A stretch of 42,917 nt of DNA from a virus. Its lineage: Duplodnaviria > Heunggongvirae > Uroviricota > Caudoviricetes. Numbering within the stretch: the stretch's first letter is position 1; each line of letters opens with the position of its first letter. The notes beneath the pieces are model-generated. The model did not search any database and had not been told where the DNA came from. It was given only the letters and a program-made list of their open reading frames with translations. The DNA lies in IMG/VR virus record IMGVR_UViG_2718218102_000002; one strand, 5' to 3'. Shown piece after piece: positions 25,642 through 37,649 of this stretch. Position numbers and translations under genes: made by a program.

Positions 25642-25968
25642 TCAAGGACGTGACGGCGTAAAGATAAATTGTCTCTTCACTCCCTGACAGGGGCGATTCT
25701 TTTCAAATCGCCATTTCGCCATGGCCTTCACCACTTCATCACGAAACAAATTATGAGGCTCTGAGCGGAGAAAAACGATCCGTGTCACAGTCCCATCAGC
25801 ACCAATATCGAACTTAACCTCAACCAGCCCCTTGATATAATTTGCTGCAGCATATTCCGGATATCGTGGATACACCGTCACTAATTGCCGGGGCTCATCA
25901 GCTTTTTGCTGCGAGCATCCCACTGCCAGGACAGATAACAGAAAAAGTAGTAAAAGGCGTCTTTTCAT
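25642..25968 (-). CDS. Lipoprotein with TonB C-terminal-like domain (accessory gene)
   Basis: Start set at MKRRLLLLFLLSVLAVGCSQ (lipobox LAVGC), with an AGGA Shine-Dalgarno. The mature part resembles the TonB_C fold pattern (YPRYPEYAAANYIKGLVEVKFDIGADGTV…AMAKWRFE). Confidence 0.55.
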   Translation of the reverse strand: MKRRLLLLFLLSVLAVGCSQQKADEPRQLVTVYPRYPEYAAANYIKGLVEVKFDIGADGTVTRIVFLRSEPHNLFRDEVVKAMAKWRFEKNRPCQGVKRQFIFTPSRP

Positions 25969-26448
25969 TTTTATTCCTACGGGTCTTATTCTGACAATAT
26001 ATCCTGTGTTCCAGACTGCCACATCACCACATCCTGTGCCATTATCTGACTCACATTACATACATCGCATCGGGATACAGTAGTAGCACTTTCTGTAATA
26101 CAGCTTCCTGTTTCTTCCACCATCGCACCGGGATAAACCCGCGAATCATTAACGCGGTAAAAACCCGGTGTGCATCGTTTTTAATTATTCCCGCACACTC
26201 ACGCAGAAGGAATTCCCCGTCGGGCTACGGTCATGGTTAATGCGGGAATACGGCGACGATACAGCGCAGCTAAAAGGGTAATGGACGGATAGACCGGTTT
26301 ATTTCATTCCACAGGATTCTGAGTGTCCCCAACTTCCTCCAATAGTCTGAGCCCACCTGTGTAGTTTTAATTTTCATCAATCCATTTAACTATCGTTTAA
26401 TTGTTGTCACATAGGATTCTGCCGTTTTTAACAATGCAGGATAATAAG

Positions 26449-26742
26449 ATGAAAAAAATGTTGTTTTCTGCCGCTCTGGCAATGCTTATTACAGGATGTG
26501 CTCAACAGACGTTTACTGTTGGAAACAAACCTACAGCAGTAACACCAAAGGAAACCATCACCCATCATTTCTTCGTTTCGGGAATTGGGCAGAAGAAAAC
26601 TGTCGATGCAGCAAAAATTTGTGGTGGTGCAGAAAATGTTGTTAAAACAGAAACCCAGCAAACATTCGTAAATGGATTGCTCGGTTTTATTACTTTAGGC
26701 ATTTATACTCCGCTGGAAGCGCGTGTGTATTGCTCACAATAA
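26449..26742 (+). CDS. bor: Bor lipoprotein (serum resistance)
   Basis: 97 aa, starting MKKMLFSAALAMLITGCAQQ; opposite strand to the late genes, between Rz and cos as in lambda. Confidence 0.9.
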   Translation: MKKMLFSAALAMLITGCAQQTFTVGNKPTAVTPKETITHHFFVSGIGQKKTVDAAKICGGAENVVKTETQQTFVNGLLGFITLGIYTPLEARVYCSQ

Positions 26743-26773
26743 TTGCATGAGTTGCCCATCGATATGGGCAGCT

Positions 26774-27235
26774 CTATCTGCACTGCTCATTAATATACTT
26801 CTGGGTTCCTTCCAGTTGTTTTTGCATAGTGATCAGCCTCTCTCTGAGGGTGAAATAATCCCGTTCAGCGGTGTCTGCCAGTCGGGGGGAGGCTGCATTA
26901 TCCACGCCGGAGGCGGTGGTGGCTTCACGCACTGACTGACAGACTGCTTTGATGTGCAACCGACGACGACCAGCGGCAACATCATCACGCAGAGCATCAT
27001 TTTCAGCTTTCGCATCAGCTAACTCCTTCGTGTATTTTGCATCGAGCGCAGCAACATCACGCTGACGCATCTGCATGTCAGTAATTGCCGCGTTCGCCAG
27101 CTTCAGTTCTCTGGCATTTTTGTCGCGCTGGGCTTTGTAGGTAATGGCGTTATTACGGTAATGATTAACAGCCCATGACAGGCAGACGATGATGCAGATA
27201 ACCAGAGCGGAGATAATCGCGGTTACTCTGTTCAT
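26774..27235 (-). CDS. Rz: Spanin inner-membrane subunit Rz
   Basis: 153 aa, starting [26 protein letters not shown]. Confidence 0.9.
26833..27015 (-). CDS. Rz1: Spanin outer-membrane lipoprotein Rz1, embedded in Rz in the +1 frame
   Basis: 60 aa with lipobox (VVVGC) and a proline run (PPPPP), lying wholly inside Rz. Confidence 0.85.
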
Positions 27236-27729
27236 TGCTGACCCCACAAACAGATTTCACGCTCAATCTCACGACGAGTCATGAGACCTTTCCATTGCTT
27301 ACCGCCAGCATATGTCCAGCGACGTAGCTGATCACATGAGCCTTTGATATCGCCCTGGTTTATTTTGCGAAGAAGCGTCGATGTTCTGAAATTACCAGCA
27401 CCCACGTTGTAAACGAATGAGTAAAGAGCGCCGCGCGTTGTTTCCGGTATATCGACTGTGATGTACGGGTTAATTTGTCTGGCGACAGTGGCAAGGTCTT
27501 TATTCAGGAGTGCTTTGCATTCTGCTTTGGTATACGTTTTACCGAGCATGATGTCTTTTCCTGTATGCCCGTGACATACAGTCCATACACCAACAATATC
27601 TTTGTATGGTATGTAGCTGACACCTTCCAGACCATCGTTACCACTTGGGCCAGTGATTAACACTGATGCTATAGCAATTGCTCCGCCACCAATAGCAGCA
27701 GCAACGGCTTTTCGTAATGATGGAGGCAT
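27232..27729 (-). CDS. R: SAR endolysin (T4-lysozyme fold, phage 21 R-like)
   Basis: Gly/Ala-rich signal-anchor-release N-terminus ([18 protein letters not shown]) followed by a lysozyme E…D…T catalytic pattern. Confidence 0.85.
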
Positions 27730-27944
27730 TATTCACCTCTCGCAGCCTTGCGCTTATCTTCTTTAATCTTGAAATAAAGGTTTGTCAGGTACGTCAGCAG
27801 GCCAAATACCAGGCTACCCAGCACACCTATTGCCGCCCACTGTGAGGGCGTGACTTTATCGAGCAACTGTAAAAACCAGTACCCGGCACTACCTGCTGAG
27901 GTACCATAGGCGACACCCGTTGTTAACTTATCCATGGATTTCAT
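27729..27944 (-). CDS. S: Pinholin (phage 21 S-like) with dual-start MKSM motif
   Basis: 71 aa with two TM segments; MKSMDK start allows the 71-aa antiholin and 68-aa holin forms. Confidence 0.85.
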
Positions 27945-28073
27945 AACCCCACCTCGCAGACAAAGCGGGTGTAAATTAAGGGGATACTACGTATCGCAAT
28001 AAAGGCAGAAACGTAACAGATTCGGAGTCAGTGAATAACTCAGGTATTGGGTTATCAGCTAATATCGAGACTC

Positions 28074-28106
28074 AAAAAATGGAAAAACCCGCTCGACGGC
28101 GGGTTT
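28074..28106 (-). terminator. Putative intrinsic terminator upstream of the lysis cassette (tR'-like position)
   Basis: Minus-strand hairpin aaacccgc-cgtcga-gcgggttt followed by ttccatttttt, about 130 bp upstream of the S start. Confidence 0.45.
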
Positions 28107-28532
28107 AAGCTGTGTGACGAAGTAACCACTCTTAACAGCATAACCAATTTTTTACGTACGTAAACTACTAAATGATATTTGTGAGAATGCCACCGAGTGT
28201 TCAAAACACCACCACAAATGCATAAGAAAACTTCAACAAATAACCAGTTAATAATTTCCGATGTTATTTTTAGTTTGTTTAAATTAAGCTAAAGAATTAT
28301 AGAGCACTTATAAATAAGTGCCATTAATATAAATTAGCTAATAGATTTATTTTTGTTCAGACAAGAGCCATGAATAGGATTAGATAGAAAAGGTTCCGAT
28401 AAAAATAGAGATCTACTTCACAAATTAAATGAGAAACTAAAACTTACATCTTGAAATAATCACATTGATTAGATGAATATTTATCGCGCAGTGACATCAT
28501 TTTTTAATAATAGTTCAAAAAAAGGGCGTACA

Positions 28533-29615
28533 ATGAAAAAATTAACAGTGGCAATTTCTGCTGTAGCTGCATCAGTACTGATGGCGATGTCTGCTCAGGC
28601 AGCTGAAATTTATAATAAAGACAGTAACAAGCTGGATCTATACGGGAAAGTTAATGCCAAGCACTACTTCTCCTCTAATGATGCAGATGATGGTGATACT
28701 ACTTATGCCCGTCTTGGCTTCAAAGGTGAAACCCAAATCAACGATCAACTGACTGGTTTCGGTCAGTGGGAATATGAATTCAAAGGCAACCGTGCTGAAT
28801 CTCAAGGTTCTTCCAAAGACAAAACCCGTCTTGCATTTGCAGGCCTGAAATTTGGTGATTACGGCTCAATCGATTACGGCCGTAACTACGGTGTAGCATA
28901 CGACATCGGTGCGTGGACTGACGTTCTGCCAGAATTCGGTGGTGATACCTGGACCCAAACAGATGTGTTCATGACTGGTCGCACTACTGGTGTTGCAACT
29001 TATCGTAACAACGACTTCTTTGGTCTGGTCGATGGCCTGAACTTTGCTGCTCAGTATCAGGGTAAAAATGACCGCACTGACGTAACTGAAGCCAATGGTG
29101 ATGGTTTCGGTTTCTCCACTACTTATGAGTATGAAGGATTCGGCGTGGGTGCAACCTATGCTAAATCAGATCGCACTGACGGTCAGGTCGCCTATGGTAA
29201 GAGCAAATTCAATGCCTCCGGCAAAAATGCGGAAGTATGGGCTGCAGGCCTGAAATATGATGCGAACAATATCTATCTGGCTACCACATATTCTGAAACT
29301 CAGAATATGACCGTTTTTGGTAATAACCATATTGCAAACAAAGCACAAAACTTTGAAGCAGTAGCACAATATCAGTTTGACTTCGGTCTGCGTCCATCTG
29401 TTGCTTACCTTCAGTCAAAAGGTAAAGACCTTGGTGTTCATGGTGACCGAGACTTAGTCAAGTATGTCGATGTCGGTGCTACTTACTACTTTAATAAAAA
29501 CATGTCCACTTTTGTTGATTACAAAATCAACTTAATTGACGATAGTAAGTTTACCAAAACAGCTGGTATTGATACCGACGACATCGTCGCTGTAGGTCTG
29601 GTTTATCAGTTCTAA
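28533..29615 (+). CDS. Outer membrane porin, OmpC/OmpF/NmpC (Lc-like) family
   Basis: Start set at MKKLTVAIS with a cleavable signal peptide; classic porin N-terminus [16 protein letters not shown] and C-terminal VGLVYQF. Confidence 0.85.
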
Positions 29616-31059: not shown

Positions 31060-31222
31060 GACTCCTCCTTGCTGCCAGTCGCAACCATTTTTTATCAACC
31101 AGGCTGGCGGTATATCCGAGCAGTGTTGGTATTTCGGATGGCTTCAGCTCAGGCTTACGCTTACGACGATTTGATACTCTGTAGATGTGTCCGTTCATGA
31201 CACGAATAAGCGGTGTAGCCAT
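31052..31222 (-). CDS. NinE-like small basic protein (below the track length cutoff)
   Basis: Hand-translated 56-aa [59 protein letters not shown]. Start overlaps the ninB stop (TAATG) and stop overlaps the ybcO-like start. Confidence 0.4.
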   Translation of the reverse strand: MATPLIRVMNGHIYRVSNRRKRKPELKPSEIPTLLGYTASLVDKKWLRLAARRSHG

Positions 31223-31677
31223 TACGCCTCCTGCTTGTCGCGGAGCAGCTGGAACTCGCAGCTCTGCGGAATAGTCAGGTGGCAGCCAATATTCACCGCC
31301 CAGGCTTCAACCTTACACAGGAAGACATACATCTCTCCGGTATCAAGATCGGAGGTATGGCGTAACGACTGGATAGTGGTGATATCACCGGTTACGACAT
31401 CAACCAGGTCTTTGGTTTCATAACCGAGATATGTGTGTTTGAGAGCATCTTTTACCCAAGCTGGAGTGGCGAACGTTTTACCCCTGCTGATGAGGTATTC
31501 ACTGATTTCGCTGTACCACATGTGGCTGAGTGCATTCTGGGAAAGACTGCGTCTCTCGCGCCACGGTTTAAGCACCATGCGAAAGCATTTGCCGTCTTCC
31601 AGATAAGTCTGGATCTGCTGACCGACAGCGGTGAAGTTACCGCGATGTAATTTGATGCCATCTTGTGGGAGGTTCAC
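31222..31677 (-). CDS. ninB: NinB/YbcN-family recombination protein
   Basis: 151 aa; contains the SLSQN…W pattern recalled for NinB. Confidence 0.7.
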
Positions 31678-31944
31678 GCTTCACCTCCGCAGAGATCAAA
31701 CGCTGGATGCAAGACATCGCAGGTGCATTTCTGCATCTGTGACAAGGTGATGAGTTCAGATTGTGGTCGCATTTAAGTCCCCTTAAATGCGCAGAAGTCA
31801 CCGGAGTTGTTCAGGCTCCGATGAGAGGATTATGGCGGATTGATTACGATAAATCAAAACTATCTTGAAGCCAAAACAGTGATCTTCGCTTTAAAAACCT
31901 TGTATACTTTCACCTAATCACAGCCAGAACTATGGATCTAACCA

Positions 31945-32322
31945 ATGACCAACAAAGAAAACAAAGATAAATATATTAACAAGTTCAAGAAAGAGCTTTC
32001 AAAATATATACAACCAACTGCTGGAGTGGACATTCAATTATTTAACTCTAAGGATGGTGGTGGTGTAATTAAAGCCACTTTGAATAGAAGTGGAAAAAGA
32101 AAATCATCTATTGCAGGTAATTTTACTAAATTAGGTGAGGCAATTACCTCGAGTGGGCAGAGGGTTTTTGGTGGTGATCTATCAAATGTAAATTTTTACG
32201 GAACAAATACGATTTTTGATGGAGATACAATATTTTTAATTAAATCACCTGATTCAGAGGAGTGGTCATCACAAAAAGCTTCCAAAGACGTAGAGGGAAT
32301 CGTATTTGGAGGGAAAAAATGA
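31945..32322 (+). CDS. Hypothetical soluble protein (AT-rich opposite-strand cassette, gene 1)
   Basis: 125 aa, Lys/Gly-rich, no predicted TM segment; very low GC compared with flanking phage genes. Confidence 0.5.
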   Translation: MTNKENKDKYINKFKKELSKYIQPTAGVDIQLFNSKDGGGVIKATLNRSGKRKSSIAGNFTKLGEAITSSGQRVFGGDLSNVNFYGTNTIFDGDTIFLIKSPDSEEWSSQKASKDVEGIVFGGKK

Positions 32323-32747
32323 TTAACATTACTACTAAGGATGGCACTCAAGTCAGTGGTGAAGTAAGAGATCTAGTAATTCTTCTTGAAACTGATGGAA
32401 AAACGGTGTCTGATTATTTGCAGCCAATCCCTCCCAAAAAAGATACACACTGGAGCATGATTTTCATTCCGGTAGCAATTTATATACTACTTAATCTTGT
32501 ATACATTATTGCTCACCCATTATTTCCTGAAAAATATCTAAAAACATCAACATCTATATTTCTATTCATTTCCTTCATATTAAGTGCAATAGTAGCATAT
32601 TTTGTTTTCCATAAGCATAAATCTGCCACTCTATCCATATGCAGCTTAGTGTTCTTAGTGTTAATTGTAGGTGCTAACGTAGGGTTTATCAGTTACAGCG
32701 ACCTAACACAAAAAGCGACGCAAAAATTAGATAGTTTGTCTAAATAA
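32319..32747 (+). CDS. Hypothetical membrane protein, about 3 TM helices (AT-rich cassette, gene 2)
   Basis: Start set at MINITTKDG, with GGAGGG Shine-Dalgarno and ATGA overlap with the gene 1 stop. Soluble N-terminal ~45 aa, then three hydrophobic segments. Confidence 0.5.
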   Translation: MINITTKDGTQVSGEVRDLVILLETDGKTVSDYLQPIPPKKDTHWSMIFIPVAIYILLNLVYIIAHPLFPEKYLKTSTSIFLFISFILSAIVAYFVFHKHKSATLSICSLVFLVLIVGANVGFISYSDLTQKATQKLDSLSK

Positions 32748-32825
32748 TTATGTTGCCATGCGAAGTATGCATGGCTGCATGTCTGCCTTCCATTTAAAAT
32801 GGGCTAAGACCTATAACCCTAAATA

Positions 32826-33539
32826 TTATTCTTTATTATCTTCTTTACCACTTCGCACCATCCCGTTCGACTTGTTGCGGTTGTACTTCGCCTGAAGCAG
32901 CTGGATTGGCGTCGGGCCATGCTCGGCAGCCGGTGCTGCAATCGCCCGGCGCACAGGCGGTACTGGTTTGCCCTCGGTGACGCGCCTCTCCCACATGTCC
33001 AGCAGATCGCCGGCTTCACGCGCCAGCTCACCATGCGTTAACTGGCGCTCTGTGCTGCGGTGGCGCAGTTCGACGCAGATGTGGTACATGACAGGCTGTG
33101 ACCACGGGAAATGCTCGCTGGAAGTGAATTCGAAGGAACGATTACGCCAATCCCAGTATTCGGTTATGACTTGGTCAACAGTGATACCTAACGCCCCGCC
33201 ACTCTGCTTACACCACGCTACGAACTGGCCGGGCGACGGCAGGAATGGTCGCTCCTGTCGGCGGGCCACGCGCATTCCGGCGTTAACCTGCTCCATAGTG
33301 GTAATTCCATTTTCACGGAAAGCCATAACCCACTGACGGCGGATTTCGTTCAGCTCGTTCTGGTCGCGGTTCGCGAGGCTTGCCGGAAATGTCGCAAGCA
33401 GCTGGCTGAACACACCGTTGATGATCTGCGCCACCTGCTGCACCTGCGGCTTTTCGTCGTATTGTTCCGGCATGTTGTTGGCGATTCGACGCATCTGCTC
33501 ACGGTCAAAGTTAATCATCTGCGCGGCAATATTTTTCAT
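32826..33539 (-). CDS. P: Replication protein P (DnaB helicase loader)
   Basis: N-terminal ~110 aa (MKNIAAQMINFDREQMRRIANNMPEQYDEKPQVQQ…) matches lambda P as recalled; C-terminal part differs. Confidence 0.85.
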   Translation of the reverse strand: MKNIAAQMINFDREQMRRIANNMPEQYDEKPQVQQVAQIINGVFSQLLATFPASLANRDQNELNEIRRQWVMAFRENGITTMEQVNAGMRVARRQERPFLPSPGQFVAWCKQSGGALGITVDQVITEYWDWRNRSFEFTSSEHFPWSQPVMYHICVELRHRSTERQLTHGELAREAGDLLDMWERRVTEGKPVPPVRRAIAAPAAEHGPTPIQLLQAKYNRNKSNGMVRSGKEDNKE

Positions 33540-34551: not shown

Positions 34552-35097
34552 TCATATTGCCCCCAGCATGGTGGTGACCATCGCCATCAATGGACCAGCC
34601 AGATCCGGGTCCACACGAAACATCGACACAATGCCTTCACTCATCTCCTTCAGTTTCTGGTGGCGTGGTGCGTTGAGAATGACAGCCTGTTTTGCCTCAC
34701 TGAGTTCCTTTTCCATTTCAGCCAGCCGAGCCATGTAGCTATCCTGCTCAACCAGGTGGCCGCGATATTCCAGCGGTAGTACCGCCAGAATTGCCGGGGT
34801 CAGTTCACGCACGTTATTTCGGTATTTTTCAGAATCGAATTTGTTATCGAGAAAGCGGAACAGCTTCTGGCGTGCACGGCTGACATCATCAGGGAAATCG
34901 ATGGTGCCGCCGCCCTGCTCCCGATACTCATTCACAATGAGTGCGGCAACAACATCCTGATTATCTGCAGCCGACCAGGCGCGAACGGCATCACGGATTT
35001 TTTCGTGGCCTGGCGCCTGTTTTGTTTGAGAACGATTTATCACCGCAGTCGGGCTAAATCCGCTAGTCTGTTGGTATGTAAGTGGTTGCATAGTCAT
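34552..35097 (-). CDS. Hypothetical regulator in the cII position (CII-like or YdaT-like); function uncertain
   Basis: 181-aa ORF between cro and O; no family confidently recognised by eye. Confidence 0.4.
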   Translation of the reverse strand: MTMQPLTYQQTSGFSPTAVINRSQTKQAPGHEKIRDAVRAWSAADNQDVVAALIVNEYREQGGGTIDFPDDVSRARQKLFRFLDNKFDSEKYRNNVRELTPAILAVLPLEYRGHLVEQDSYMARLAEMEKELSEAKQAVILNAPRHQKLKEMSEGIVSMFRVDPDLAGPLMAMVTTMLGAI

Positions 35098-35349: not shown

Positions 35350-35459
35350 TATCAATTCCTATTGGTATTGCAATGAATAAATAATAGCAATGCGTATTAA
35401 TCCAAGCAATAGCAAAACGTGTTTTGACCATCAATACGCAAGCGTATAAATTAAAACTT
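35350..35459. promoter_or_regulatory. Right operator/promoter region (oR with divergent pR and pRM-like promoters)
   Basis: Three ATAGCAAT/ACCAATAG-type sites spaced about 22-23 bp apart (35359-35375, 35381-35398, 35404-35418). Plus strand: TTGACC (35424-35429) and TATAAA (35445-35450) just before the cI ATG. Minus strand: TTGCTT-17nt-TATTAT upstream of cro. Confidence 0.5.
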
Positions 35460-36152
35460 ATGAAAAAAGAAACTCTTGCTGATCGCTTAAACCTAGCGAT
35501 GGAACAATCTGGAATGTCTCAAGGCGCTCTTGCAAAGGCGTCTGGCGTAGCTCAACCCACAATCTGGAGACTGACAAGCGGCAACGCGCGCGGCTCAACA
35601 AAAATTGTTGAAATAGCTAATGCATTGGGTGTTCGAACAGAATGGCTCTCATCAGGCATAGGCCCGATGAGAAATGACGGTCAACAATCAGGGAAGCCTG
35701 CTGTCAGCTATTCCAAATACTTTAAAATTGACGTTCTTGATATAGAAGTGAGTGCCGGGCCGGGAGTCATCAACCGTGAGTTTGTAGAAGTTCTACGCTC
35801 GGTTGAGTACTCGTTTGACGATGCTCGTCACATGTTCGATGGTAGGAAGGCAGAAAATATCCGCATCATTAACGTACGCGGTGACAGCATGTCAGGAACG
35901 ATTGAACCTGGTGATCTTCTATTCGTTGATATCACGGTTAAATCTTTCGACGGTGATGGTATCTATGCGTTTCTGTACGACGACACAGCCCATGTAAAGC
36001 GCCTGCAAATGATGAAGGATAAGCTGCTGGTTATCTCTGATAACAAAAGCTACTCACCGTGGGACCCGATCGAGAAAGATGAGATGAACCGGGTATTTAT
36101 CTTCGGGAAAGTTATTGGGAGCATGCCGCAGACGTATAGGAAGCATGGATAG
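35460..36152 (+). CDS. cI: CI-type repressor (N-terminal HTH plus C-terminal S24 LexA-like autopeptidase)
   Basis: HTH motif QGALAKASGVAQPTIWRL; GDSM and a downstream Lys (HVKRL) typical of the S24 Ser-Lys dyad. The ATG at 35460 is preferred over the track TTG at 35424. Confidence 0.85.
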   Translation: MKKETLADRLNLAMEQSGMSQGALAKASGVAQPTIWRLTSGNARGSTKIVEIANALGVRTEWLSSGIGPMRNDGQQSGKPAVSYSKYFKIDVLDIEVSAGPGVINREFVEVLRSVEYSFDDARHMFDGRKAENIRIINVRGDSMSGTIEPGDLLFVDITVKSFDGDGIYAFLYDDTAHVKRLQMMKDKLLVISDNKSYSPWDPIEKDEMNRVFIFGKVIGSMPQTYRKHG

Positions 36153-36232
36153 TACCAATTAAAAATTATCAACCGGGCATTGTGCTCATTCAGTAAAACA
36201 ACTTAATTATTCATTTTAGAATGGAGAACTTA

Positions 36233-37294
36233 ATGGATACTTTAAAATATGAGAAATTCTCTGATTTTGATCACAATGACCCATTTTTTGACTCTTTAAA
36301 AAAAGATTATAAAGAGTTTCCTCTTTGGTTAGAAAAAAAAGCCAGAGAAGGAGAATCAGCTTATGTGCTCTATGATGACAAGCATAAAATCGAAGGTTTT
36401 ATGTATCTAAAAGAAAATGATGATGCAAATGACATTAATCCAGCGCTCCCACCAGGACGTCATCTAAAGATAGGAACATTCAAATTTGAATCTAAAGGCA
36501 CCCTTCGCGGACAACGATTTCTAAAAAAAGCGTTTGACCATGCATTTTCATCAAAATCTGATGATATTTATGTTACTGTTTTCGACAAACACGTCCATCT
36601 AATAAAACTTTTCCAAACGTACGGATTTTACATTCATGGTGAAAAAGAAACACATAACGGGAAAGAGTTTGTATATGCGAGGTCTTTGCATGAGCCTTAT
36701 GGTGATATTTTATTAGATTACCCTCGAATAATGACATCAAGGGCCAACAAATATTTACTGGCGATTTATCCCGAATATCACACTAGACTATTCCCTGATT
36801 CAAAACTTGTAAATGAATCACCAGATATTGTCAAAGATATATCCCATGCTAACAGCATTCATAAAATTTACATATGTGGAATGCGTTCTGTGATGGGAAT
36901 GAAAAGAGGAGATATCATTGTCATCTATAGAACCGGAGACAAAAAAGGGCCAGCTCGCTATCGTTCTGTAGCCAGTACATTATGTGTAGTTGAGAGCGTA
37001 AAAAATATTTCTGAATTTTTAAGCGAAGATAGTTTTGTAGACTATTGTATTCGTTTTAGCGTATTTTCTGAAGATGAACTCAGAAAAATCTATAAAGAAC
37101 GTCGATACCCTTTCATTATAAGATTCACATACAATCTGTCTTTGCCAAAGAGACCCAATCGTGCTATTTTAATAGATCATGTGGGGCTAAATGGTTCGCG
37201 TGCATTCCGATGGAGTCACTTTAAACTCACAAATGAGCAGTTCTTAAAGATCATCGAGTTAGGCAAGATAAATGAAAGTTTTATTATCCATTAA
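36233..37294 (+). CDS. Hypothetical two-domain protein: possible GNAT-like N-terminal half and ASCH/PUA-like C-terminal half
   Basis: 353 aa from the second ATG (GGAG Shine-Dalgarno). N-terminal segment LRGQRFLKKAF…IYVTVFD…LFQTYGFYIHG loosely resembles GNAT motifs A/B. Domain calls are by eye and tentative. Confidence 0.55.
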   Translation: MDTLKYEKFSDFDHNDPFFDSLKKDYKEFPLWLEKKAREGESAYVLYDDKHKIEGFMYLKENDDANDINPALPPGRHLKIGTFKFESKGTLRGQRFLKKAFDHAFSSKSDDIYVTVFDKHVHLIKLFQTYGFYIHGEKETHNGKEFVYARSLHEPYGDILLDYPRIMTSRANKYLLAIYPEYHTRLFPDSKLVNESPDIVKDISHANSIHKIYICGMRSVMGMKRGDIIVIYRTGDKKGPARYRSVASTLCVVESVKNISEFLSEDSFVDYCIRFSVFSEDELRKIYKERRYPFIIRFTYNLSLPKRPNRAILIDHVGLNGSRAFRWSHFKLTNEQFLKIIELGKINESFIIH

Positions 37295-37649
37295 GCCTGA
37301 GTTTGCAGAAAAAATATTGAACGGAACAAAGCGGTTCGAGTTTCGTAAAGGTATATTCAAAAATCCGCAAATTAGCACCGTTGTTATTTATGCCACGATG
37401 CCATTAGGTAAAGTTGTTGGTCAATTCCGTATTGAATCAATACTAAGTGACGAACCGGAATCTCTTTGGAAAAAGACGGAAAAGCACGCAGGTATTTCTA
37501 AGCAATTTTATGACTCATATTATTCAGGTAGAGAAAAGGCCTACGCAATAAAAATTGGTGAAGTGGAAAGATATAAAGAACCAATTCCTATCTCTGCTCT
37601 AGGTAGTAATATTAAGCCACCACAATCATATCTTTACCTACCTGCGTAA
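37272..37649 (+). CDS. ASCH-domain protein (PUA-like fold)
   Basis: 125 aa; N-terminus MKVLLSIKPEFAEKILNGTKRFEFRK is typical of ASCH proteins. Overlaps the upstream gene by 23 nt. Confidence 0.65.
   Translation: MKVLLSIKPEFAEKILNGTKRFEFRKGIFKNPQISTVVIYATMPLGKVVGQFRIESILSDEPESLWKKTEKHAGISKQFYDSYYSGREKAYAIKIGEVERYKEPIPISALGSNIKPPQSYLYLPA

Follow-up and report, generated by a model that had tools for sequence, protein, structure and literature searches.

The 42,917-nt viral record IMGVR_UViG_2718218102_000002 (IMG/VR, Caudoviricetes; the whole of this stretch is called the window below) carries, between the replication and nin genes of an E. coli lambdoid prophage, a cassette (~31860–32825) with two small overlapping genes, named here A and B. 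The A-B pair lies outside every described family and is a real, constrained and mobile two-gene module, now defined as a family pair across several phyla. As for its function, we consider it nearly an even chance that A-B is a lysogen-expressed anti-phage module of the abortive-infection type, composed of a sensor and a membrane effector, Rex-like without being a homologue of RexAB, and carried as self-contained mobile prophage cargo.

Genes A and B are an ancient pair conserved across phyla

Gene A (31945–32322, plus strand) encodes a soluble protein of 125 aa (RefSeq WP_000182282.1, PHROG 18061), and gene B (32319–32747, plus strand) a protein of 142 aa, counted from its ATG, with three transmembrane (TM) helices (WP_000608370.1, PHROG 16940). 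In the raw sequence, the stop codon of A overlaps the start codon of B in an ATGA at 32319–32322. A Shine-Dalgarno sequence for B, GGAGGG (32308–32313, plus strand, read directly from the sequence), is located within the 3′ end of A, 5 nt before the B ATG. Because of this site and the ATGA overlap, the two genes are translationally coupled. A 161-aa form of B initiated at a GTG was considered and rejected, all homologues beginning at a conserved MI.ITTKDG that follows the GGAGG site.

The cassette stands out by its composition. GC content is 0.31–0.37 over 31800–32800, compared to 0.50–0.65 in the flanks; it amounts to 0.336 in gene A, 0.338 in gene B and 0.346 in the cassette taken from 31860 to 32825, against 0.507 for the window. 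At third codon positions (GC3), the cassette genes have values of 0.25–0.28. Upon shuffling of the cassette, an open reading frame (ORF) of at least 125 codons was obtained in 12 of 5000 shuffles. Comparison of the window with an Enterobacter variant and a Klebsiella variant gave dN/dS of 0.07–0.09 for A and for B. Since long ORFs are rare in the shuffles and dN/dS is this low, A and B are real genes under purifying selection and not chance ORFs. The initial annotation, made from the letters alone, had described an AT-rich opposite-strand insertion of two genes coupled by the ATGA; the ORF list and the GC profile bear out the insertion, and the GGAGGG site adds to the coupling.

Protein A is basic (pI 9.5) and has no hydrophobic segment (maximum KD19 0.43), in agreement with its earlier description as a 125-aa soluble protein. 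An exhaustive profile search started from the enterobacterial A alignment collected a family of 111 clusters at 50% identity, nearly all of them 120–135 aa long and aligned end to end. In the family alignment, G86 and K100 are invariant, and Y10, G39, F84, T87, I99, W107 and D115 are conserved at 90% or more.

Protein B starts with a soluble, acidic N-terminus (residues 1–40, pI 4.5), whose charge is complementary to that of A, and continues with hydrophobic peaks at ~46–64, 78–98 and 104–124. The N-terminal domain of ~36 aa is nearly invariant, the loop between TM2 and TM3 is basic (HKHK), and the C-terminal tail is amphipathic. The AlphaFold2 (AF2) model, built from a shallow enterobacterial alignment and with a predicted local distance difference test (pLDDT) of 67.7, consists of a β-hairpin and a helix followed by helices 44–68, 71–100 and 103–141. 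Hydropathy and the AF2 helices both agree with the first reading of this gene as encoding 142 aa with a soluble N-terminus and three hydrophobic helices. From its sequence, B is predicted to be an inner-membrane protein with a cytosolic N-terminal domain. A match of B to 7TMR-DISM (21.4 bits for a cut-off of 29) was discarded as generic TM similarity.

PHROG 18061 and PHROG 16940, both listed with ‘unknown function’, are the sole family matches of the two proteins (A, E 9e-85 over positions 1–125 of 125; B, E 2e-96 over positions 1–142 of 142), and distant A relatives match PHROG 18061 as well. RefSeq calls both proteins hypothetical, all source names in their clusters being ‘hypothetical’ or ‘uncharacterized’, and at least 1000 E. 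coli and Shigella sonnei contigs carry the exact A and B sequences. No family was found in Pfam or NCBIfam for A, B and their distant relatives, and a PDB sequence search gave no credible match for the proteins; the A-family members gave no Pfam, NCBIfam or credible PDB sequence match either. Searches of the INPHARED phage genomes at the DNA level and by tblastn returned no phage record with A or B. Literature searches by accession, PHROG identifier and locus description, whose coverage did not extend to the prophage-defence screen of Brenes and Laub 2025, retrieved no paper on the pair, and the accessions WP_000182282.1 and WP_000608370.1 are absent from the DefensePredictor supplements. It had been stated at the outset that neither protein belonged to a recognisable family, and profile and structure searches had been proposed. 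These searches gave no curated family and no meaningful fold match, so that the statement holds for curated families; it has to be amended for the two PHROGs and for the family of at least 111 clusters to which A belongs.

To follow the pair outside Enterobacteriaceae, loci were taken from reference genomes, metagenomes and IMG/VR, and relatives were gathered with sub-family alignments. The non-enterobacterial loci belong to Delta-, Beta- and Gammaproteobacteria, Acidobacteria, Myxococcales (Myxococcota) and Bacteroidota (Bacteroides, Flavobacterium, Mariniflexile). In 17 of the 18 distinct loci, an A homologue is followed by a B homologue on the same strand, with a spacing of -8 to +4 nt. The search started from B yielded six viral contigs, and A directly precedes B in every one of them. 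Distant B proteins measure 123–146 aa and share a soluble N-terminus of ~35 aa with the motif K.G..EG...E[IV][KR][DN]L....G..L..Y[IL]..P, 2–3 TM helices by hydropathy (three in most), a basic loop (RFK, HKHK or H.N.EK) and a TP.E tail; hhalign of the enterobacterial B against the distant B set gave 96.5% (E 8e-10). All residues of B that are invariant across phyla are within the N-terminal soluble domain. A and B are thus an ancient obligate pair, conserved as a unit across phyla.

The exception is found in Microbulbifer yueqingensis (L013 5001–6640), within an island carrying SNase and resolvase genes. There, A is accompanied by a non-homologous membrane protein (one TM helix and a coiled coil), with a DUF4062 gene 29 nt further on, and this locus may represent a three-gene variant. 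In another locus (L026 5001–5382), the A homologue no longer fits the family profile after position 85, and 46 nt separate it from B; this A is probably a frameshifted or decaying copy.

The cassette as mobile cargo of lambdoid prophages

Of the 5426 complete E. coli genomes searched, 46 contain the full cassette, in each case with at least 99% identity, and close homologues (63–92% identity) are confined to Enterobacteriaceae. In the E. coli, Enterobacter and Klebsiella prophages examined, the pair is always opposite to the early-right operon and immediately upstream of the first nin gene. The genes on both sides vary: the first nin gene is ybcN, DUF1367 or NinB, and the replication side is O/P, DnaB, DnaC-like or DUF6475. 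In the window, the site corresponds to the position of lambda ren, because the right neighbour is a true homologue of lambda P and, on the lambda map used for comparison, ren is located between P and NinB.

Other cargo was observed at the same site. Phage Lambda_4C10 carries there an alpha/beta hydrolase gene on the opposite strand (L029 3426–4469), HK639 has small genes that are co-directional, and other E. coli strains have ybcL-ybcM, ybcK, emrE and ren, P22AR-C genes or, in APEC-O117H42, an opposite-strand DUF4041 gene (L050 6317–7627). This variety may mark the P-nin junction as a hotspot for cargo in general. In a related prophage (L009 3665–5348), genes for a colicin-like protein of 377 aa and a Colicin_im-like protein of 174 aa (weak Pfam matches) lie between A-B and NinB, which is conflict-type cargo at the same junction. 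No convincing flanking repeats, as signs of a transposon or integron, were found, and the cassette was likely spread by ordinary lambdoid mosaic recombination.

Alignment of the variants indicates that ~70–85 nt upstream of A travel with the cassette and include a -10-like element. In the window, this cassette-specific upstream region (31860–31944, plus strand) is a candidate promoter: a candidate -10, TATACT (31903–31908), aligns with the extended -10 TGATATAGT of the Klebsiella and Enterobacter variants, and the -35 is weak. A 15-nt direct repeat, AAyCTTGTATACwTT, which contains the palindrome GTATAC, occurs at 31896–31910 over the candidate -10 and again at 32493–32507 in gene B; it may be due to chance in AT-rich DNA.

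At the other end of the cassette, directly 3′ of the B stop codon, a GC-rich hairpin (32749–32781, not assigned to a strand) is kept together with the two genes. Its core in the window is GCCATGC-7 nt-GCATGGC (dG -16.6, z -2.7). In one variant (L003), it forms a stem of 15 bp (dG -27.5, z -6.7), and in another (L009), the stem is maintained by a paired change from C...G to A...T. A U-tract is found only on the minus-strand side, in L003. For this reason, the hairpin may stop early transcription that is not antiterminated and runs antisense into the pair; alternatively, it may stabilise the 3′ end of the mRNA.

These properties bring the cassette close to the morons of lambdoid phages (bor, lom and the HK97/HK022 morons sensu Hendrix and colleagues), a term that designates an architecture and not a function. 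As in morons, extra DNA of deviant composition is inserted between conserved neighbours, with a candidate promoter of its own, a 3′ hairpin and an orientation suited to a repressed prophage, and it is present or absent at a variable site that holds alternative cargo. In contrast to established morons, the promoter and terminator of A-B are predictions, and the same genes exist outside phages. The moron architecture proposed in the initial annotation is consequently retained for composition, variable site, opposite strand and coupling, with a weak predicted promoter and a predicted terminator.

The position of the cassette in place of ren raises the question of a role in the phage’s own lytic cycle, either as a replacement of ren or in holin/antiholin-like timing of lysis, B having with its three TM helices the size of a class I holin. 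We regard such a role as extremely improbable. The pair is oriented opposite to both early and late operons, so that lytic transcription would be antisense to it, and it also occurs in non-phage chromosomal loci. The prophage has its own lysis cassette elsewhere (essD-rrrD-rzpD), no match to a holin was obtained in Pfam or PHROGs, and the N-in topology predicted for B from its charge distribution is unlike that of S105. The reading of B as a holin was rejected on orientation and context.

A possible sensor and membrane effector

To get insight into the function of A-B, we examined the genes that surround it in distant genomes. In a metagenome-assembled genome (MAG) of Deltaproteobacteria (L018), the pair is located 112 nt upstream of brxA-brxB of a bacteriophage exclusion (BREX) system and is co-directional with them. 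In Bacteroides (L023), it is again co-directional with its neighbours and separates the gene of an N6/N4 DNA methylase from that of a ResIII/RE_endonuc protein of 1015 aa, a type III-like arrangement with a helicase and a DUF4391 gene upstream. Another Bacteroidota locus (L024) carries an HSDR_N protein nearby, and on a metagenomic contig (L034) the pair adjoins an HNH gene and is 3 kb from type I hsdM/hsdS genes. On GC-rich prophage contigs, the neighbours of the pair are an integrase and an excisionase, or C5 methyltransferases (identified by eye on the basis of their N-terminal sequences), and one pair was found in a prophage with integrase, lysozyme and holin genes. Such neighbourhoods are what one would expect around a module of defence or conflict.

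A second type of evidence comes from the domain partners of A. P0104, a metagenomic cluster representative of 447 aa, combines the A domain with an HNH endonuclease (PF01844, E 1.3e-12) in one polypeptide. Together with the Microbulbifer locus, this fusion gives A three kinds of effector partner, a 3-TM protein, a 1-TM protein with a coiled coil, or an HNH nuclease; such modularity is also a trait of known defence systems. Our preference for defence is founded on the obligate pairing, this exchange of effectors, the complementary charges, the defence-type neighbourhoods and the orientation opposite to lytic transcription. An abortive-infection or exclusion pair of sensor and effector had been suggested from the sequence of the window; this suggestion is strengthened by the pairing across phyla, by the BREX/restriction and prophage contexts and by the A-HNH fusion, the function itself keeping the status of a prediction.

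Part of the same evidence would also suit a toxin-antitoxin or addiction module, in which B would be a membrane-damaging toxin and A the antitoxin encoded upstream and coupled to it, the pair serving to stabilise a prophage or island and defence being secondary. A and B are small and overlap, and the soluble protein is encoded first, as is usual in type II systems; the pair is also mobile and found in prophages, in islands and beside restriction or BREX genes, where such systems accumulate too. A Xre/MbcA-ParS antitoxin gene is present near one locus (L010), and the charge of A is complementary to that of the B N-terminal domain. We nevertheless judge this explanation unlikely: A has no DNA-binding or known antitoxin domain, no Pfam or NCBIfam toxin domain was found in A, B or their relatives, and the A-HNH fusion is hard to square with A as a mere neutraliser. 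To our knowledge, protein-antitoxin systems with polytopic membrane toxins are also rare. The type V system GhoS/GhoT may serve for comparison. GhoT is a 57-aa protein with two TM helices, and GhoS an RNase that cleaves the toxin mRNA. The gene order, with a small soluble protein encoded upstream of a small and possibly membrane-damaging one, is the same, but A-B has no family match to GhoS or GhoT.

The localisation predicted for B leads to another possibility, superinfection exclusion at the envelope. A complex of B and A would reside in the inner membrane and constitutively block DNA entry without killing, like P22 SieA, T4 Imm or HK97 gp15. A small inner-membrane protein encoded by a prophage on the strand compatible with lysogeny would be suitable, and a conserved N-terminal domain joined to variable TM sequences fits an anchor better than a channel. 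The occurrence of the pair outside prophages, within restriction and BREX operons of non-enteric bacteria, and the A-HNH fusion, which points to an intracellular activity, make this distinctly improbable. The entry-exclusion factors known to us, moreover, are single membrane proteins or lipoproteins with no obligate cytosolic partner.

It is also quite unlikely, in our estimation, that the pair is lysogenic-conversion cargo unrelated to phages, with the membrane protein and its partner changing host physiology, for example in stress tolerance, in transport or in colonisation. Such a function would agree with the several host-fitness morons of the same prophage (porin, Bor/Iss, TonB-domain), with the frequency of the cassette in clinical E. 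coli and Shigella sonnei and with the lack of homology to defence proteins. It agrees poorly with conservation over phyla of very different lifestyles, with the nuclease fusion in the A family and with neighbours that are repeatedly restriction, BREX, integrase and methyltransferase genes, and not metabolic or envelope genes.

Among known systems, the nearest in design is RexAB. In Rex, a sensor activates a membrane effector that collapses the membrane potential. Both are prophage-borne pairs in which the cytosolic protein comes first and a small (~140 aa) polytopic inner-membrane protein second, and both lie outside the lytic operons, which would permit expression in the lysogen. By analogy, the same logic of sensor, membrane effector and collapse of the potential, established for Rex, could hold for A-B. 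The two systems differ in the size of the sensor (125 aa for A, 279 aa for RexA), in the membrane protein (three TM helices and a cytosolic N-terminal domain for B, four TM helices for RexB), in location, A-B being between P and ybcN/nin and not beside cI, and in distribution, A-B extending over several phyla and into non-phage defence loci.

Mycobacteriophages reportedly carry pairs of a cytoplasmic and a multi-pass membrane protein, Sbash gp30/gp31 and Butters gp30/gp31, that defend the lysogen against heterotypic phages and are called Rex-like. Compared by description, they resemble A-B as prophage pairs of a cytoplasmic and a membrane protein; the hosts are unrelated, and sizes and TM numbers differ. 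PrrC provides a further parallel. This one-protein system, a cytosolic anticodon nuclease that also has an ATPase domain, is encoded by prrC within the EcoprrI hsd locus. A-B is similarly a rider in a restriction or BREX operon in Bacteroides (mod/res) and in the Deltaproteobacteria MAG (brxA-brxB), an arrangement that suggests a second-line suicide module. Unlike PrrC, A-B lacks a nuclease domain, the rare A-HNH fusion apart, and is not linked to restriction in E. coli.

The mechanism that we propose for a Rex-like A-B module is as follows. The pair would have a weak promoter of its own, whose transcription converges with the repressed early-right operon; by virtue of this arrangement, the pair would be expressed while the prophage is silent. 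B would be inserted in the inner membrane with its N-terminus and the positive TM2-TM3 loop in the cytoplasm and its C-terminus outside. Basic, cytosolic A would dock on the N-terminal domain of B, which is acidic and nearly invariant, and keep B inactive. Upon infection by a heterologous phage, A would sense a phage product or a phage-induced change and release or activate B, which would then oligomerise and permeabilise or depolarise the membrane, so that phage growth stops. Upon induction of the resident prophage, N-antiterminated transcription from pR would run antisense through the cassette and damp A-B.

Several observations weigh against this proposal. The searches revealed no homologue among known defence proteins. 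In PADLOC-DB v2.0.0 (2023), neither A and B nor 14 B-family members had a match, and 61 A-family members gave only three isolated weak matches (E ≥0.002). Membership in RexAB was rejected, hhalign giving 0.2% for the B family against lambda RexB and 0.04% for the A family against RexA. Structural predictions are of low confidence: the AF2 model of A, also built from a shallow enterobacterial alignment, has a pLDDT of 58.5 for an α-β-β-α-β-β-α arrangement, that of B is the one described above, and fold searches returned nothing meaningful. Polar residues of the kind that would mark a channel are not strongly conserved in the TM helices of B. With respect to expression, DNA of 34% GC is commonly silenced by H-NS in E. 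coli, and the A-B promoter appears weak from its sequence; a promoter consensus scan, which listed 6 sites compared to 4.4 ± 1.8 in shuffles, does not include the candidate -10. On the coding strand, the 3′ hairpin has no U-tract. Finally, the neighbourhoods concern a handful of ~18 loci, a small sample with no background statistics, and four loci (L019, L020, L025, L035) have no obvious defence neighbours.

A broader proposal, which we consider possible yet doubtful, is that A-B is the founding example of an unrecognised defence family spread over multiple phyla. It would be built on a ~125-aa sensor domain of new fold, coupled to exchangeable effectors (a pore-former with three TM helices, a coiled-coil protein with one, or an HNH nuclease), and would ride at prophage moron sites and, as a second-line suicide module, in BREX and restriction operons, the antisense placement giving self-immunity on induction.

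Surroundings of the cassette and implications

The genes around the pair are all on the minus strand. The right neighbour is replication protein P (32826–33539, minus strand; 63% identity to lambda P, E 3e-89), and the left neighbour, first gene of the nin region, is ybcN/orf151 (31222–31677, minus strand), which is NinB/Orf-like. Further minus-strand genes are those for a Phage_rep_O protein and a YdaT-domain protein, Q and rusA. The initial annotation had put the insertion between ninB and P, at ren. The P homologue and the ren site are correct; the left gene is YbcN/orf151, whose match to Pfam NinB is weak (E 1.9e-4, below the cut-off). RefSeq names YbcN a DNA base-flipping protein. A passage of PMC4118853 counts within the Orf/NinB family members ‘implicated in DNA base flipping’, which, given the RefSeq name, we take to mean YbcN.

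To the left of the cassette, a conserved leader of the nin operon (31674–31858, minus strand) comprises a ylcH/orf33-like ORF of 32 aa (31674–31772, minus strand), an inverted repeat and a promoter-like site. Its part from 31700 to 31858 is common to phage 82, HK639 and many E. coli genomes, the ybcN leader being present in 3041 genomes. The extent of 31700–32800 first given for the insertion thus describes a real AT-rich insert but includes this leader, the cassette proper starting at ~31860 and ending at ~32825. The inverted repeat (CGCATTTAAG / CTTAAATGCG, perfect over 10 bp, 4-nt loop, 31768–31791) spans the ribosome-binding site and the start of the ylcH/orf33-like ORF, and could occlude that site or bind a regulator. 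The promoter-like sequence TTGATT-17-CATAAT (31857–31829, minus strand) coincides with the putative -35/-10 annotated upstream of orf33 in phage 82 (X92588). It is ~50 nt from the candidate A-B promoter, the two being divergent. In the right flank, outside the cassette and just past the P stop codon, a terminator-like hairpin with a T-run (32801–32819, minus strand) is weakly predicted at the position of lambda tR2. No RNA family of Rfam was found over 31500–33000.

Other genes of the prophage are also of note. In the cII position of the immunity region, as in related Enterobacter prophages, a gene encodes a YdaT_toxin-domain protein (E 2.4e-29; 34552–35097, minus strand). The slot following the cI-like S24 repressor gene (35424–36152), where lambda has rexAB, is occupied by two overlapping genes (36221–37649, plus strand) for a 357-aa protein with no Pfam match and a 125-aa ASCH-domain protein (E 2.5e-8); they are a candidate second lysogen-expressed pair of this prophage. 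Near the lysis region (25642–29615) are further accessory genes, for a TonB_C-domain protein (25642–26022, minus strand), a Bor/Iss lipoprotein (26401–26742, plus strand) and an OmpC/NmpC-type porin (28473–29615, plus strand).

The minimum gain from this analysis is the definition of a family, and a testable hypothesis, for two ‘hypothetical’ proteins found on more than 1000 public contigs. The pair is common in E. coli, Shigella sonnei, Enterobacter and Klebsiella and is present in Bacteroidota, Myxococcota, Acidobacteria and other Proteobacteria, and the P-nin junction of lambdoid phages is worth mining as a cargo hotspot. If A-B is a defence system, prophage-encoded immunity would be joined by a compact module of less than 1 kb, made of two proteins of unknown fold, with a sensor small enough for structural study, and, with its position inside restriction and BREX operons, it would be a new example of layered ‘guard’ immunity.

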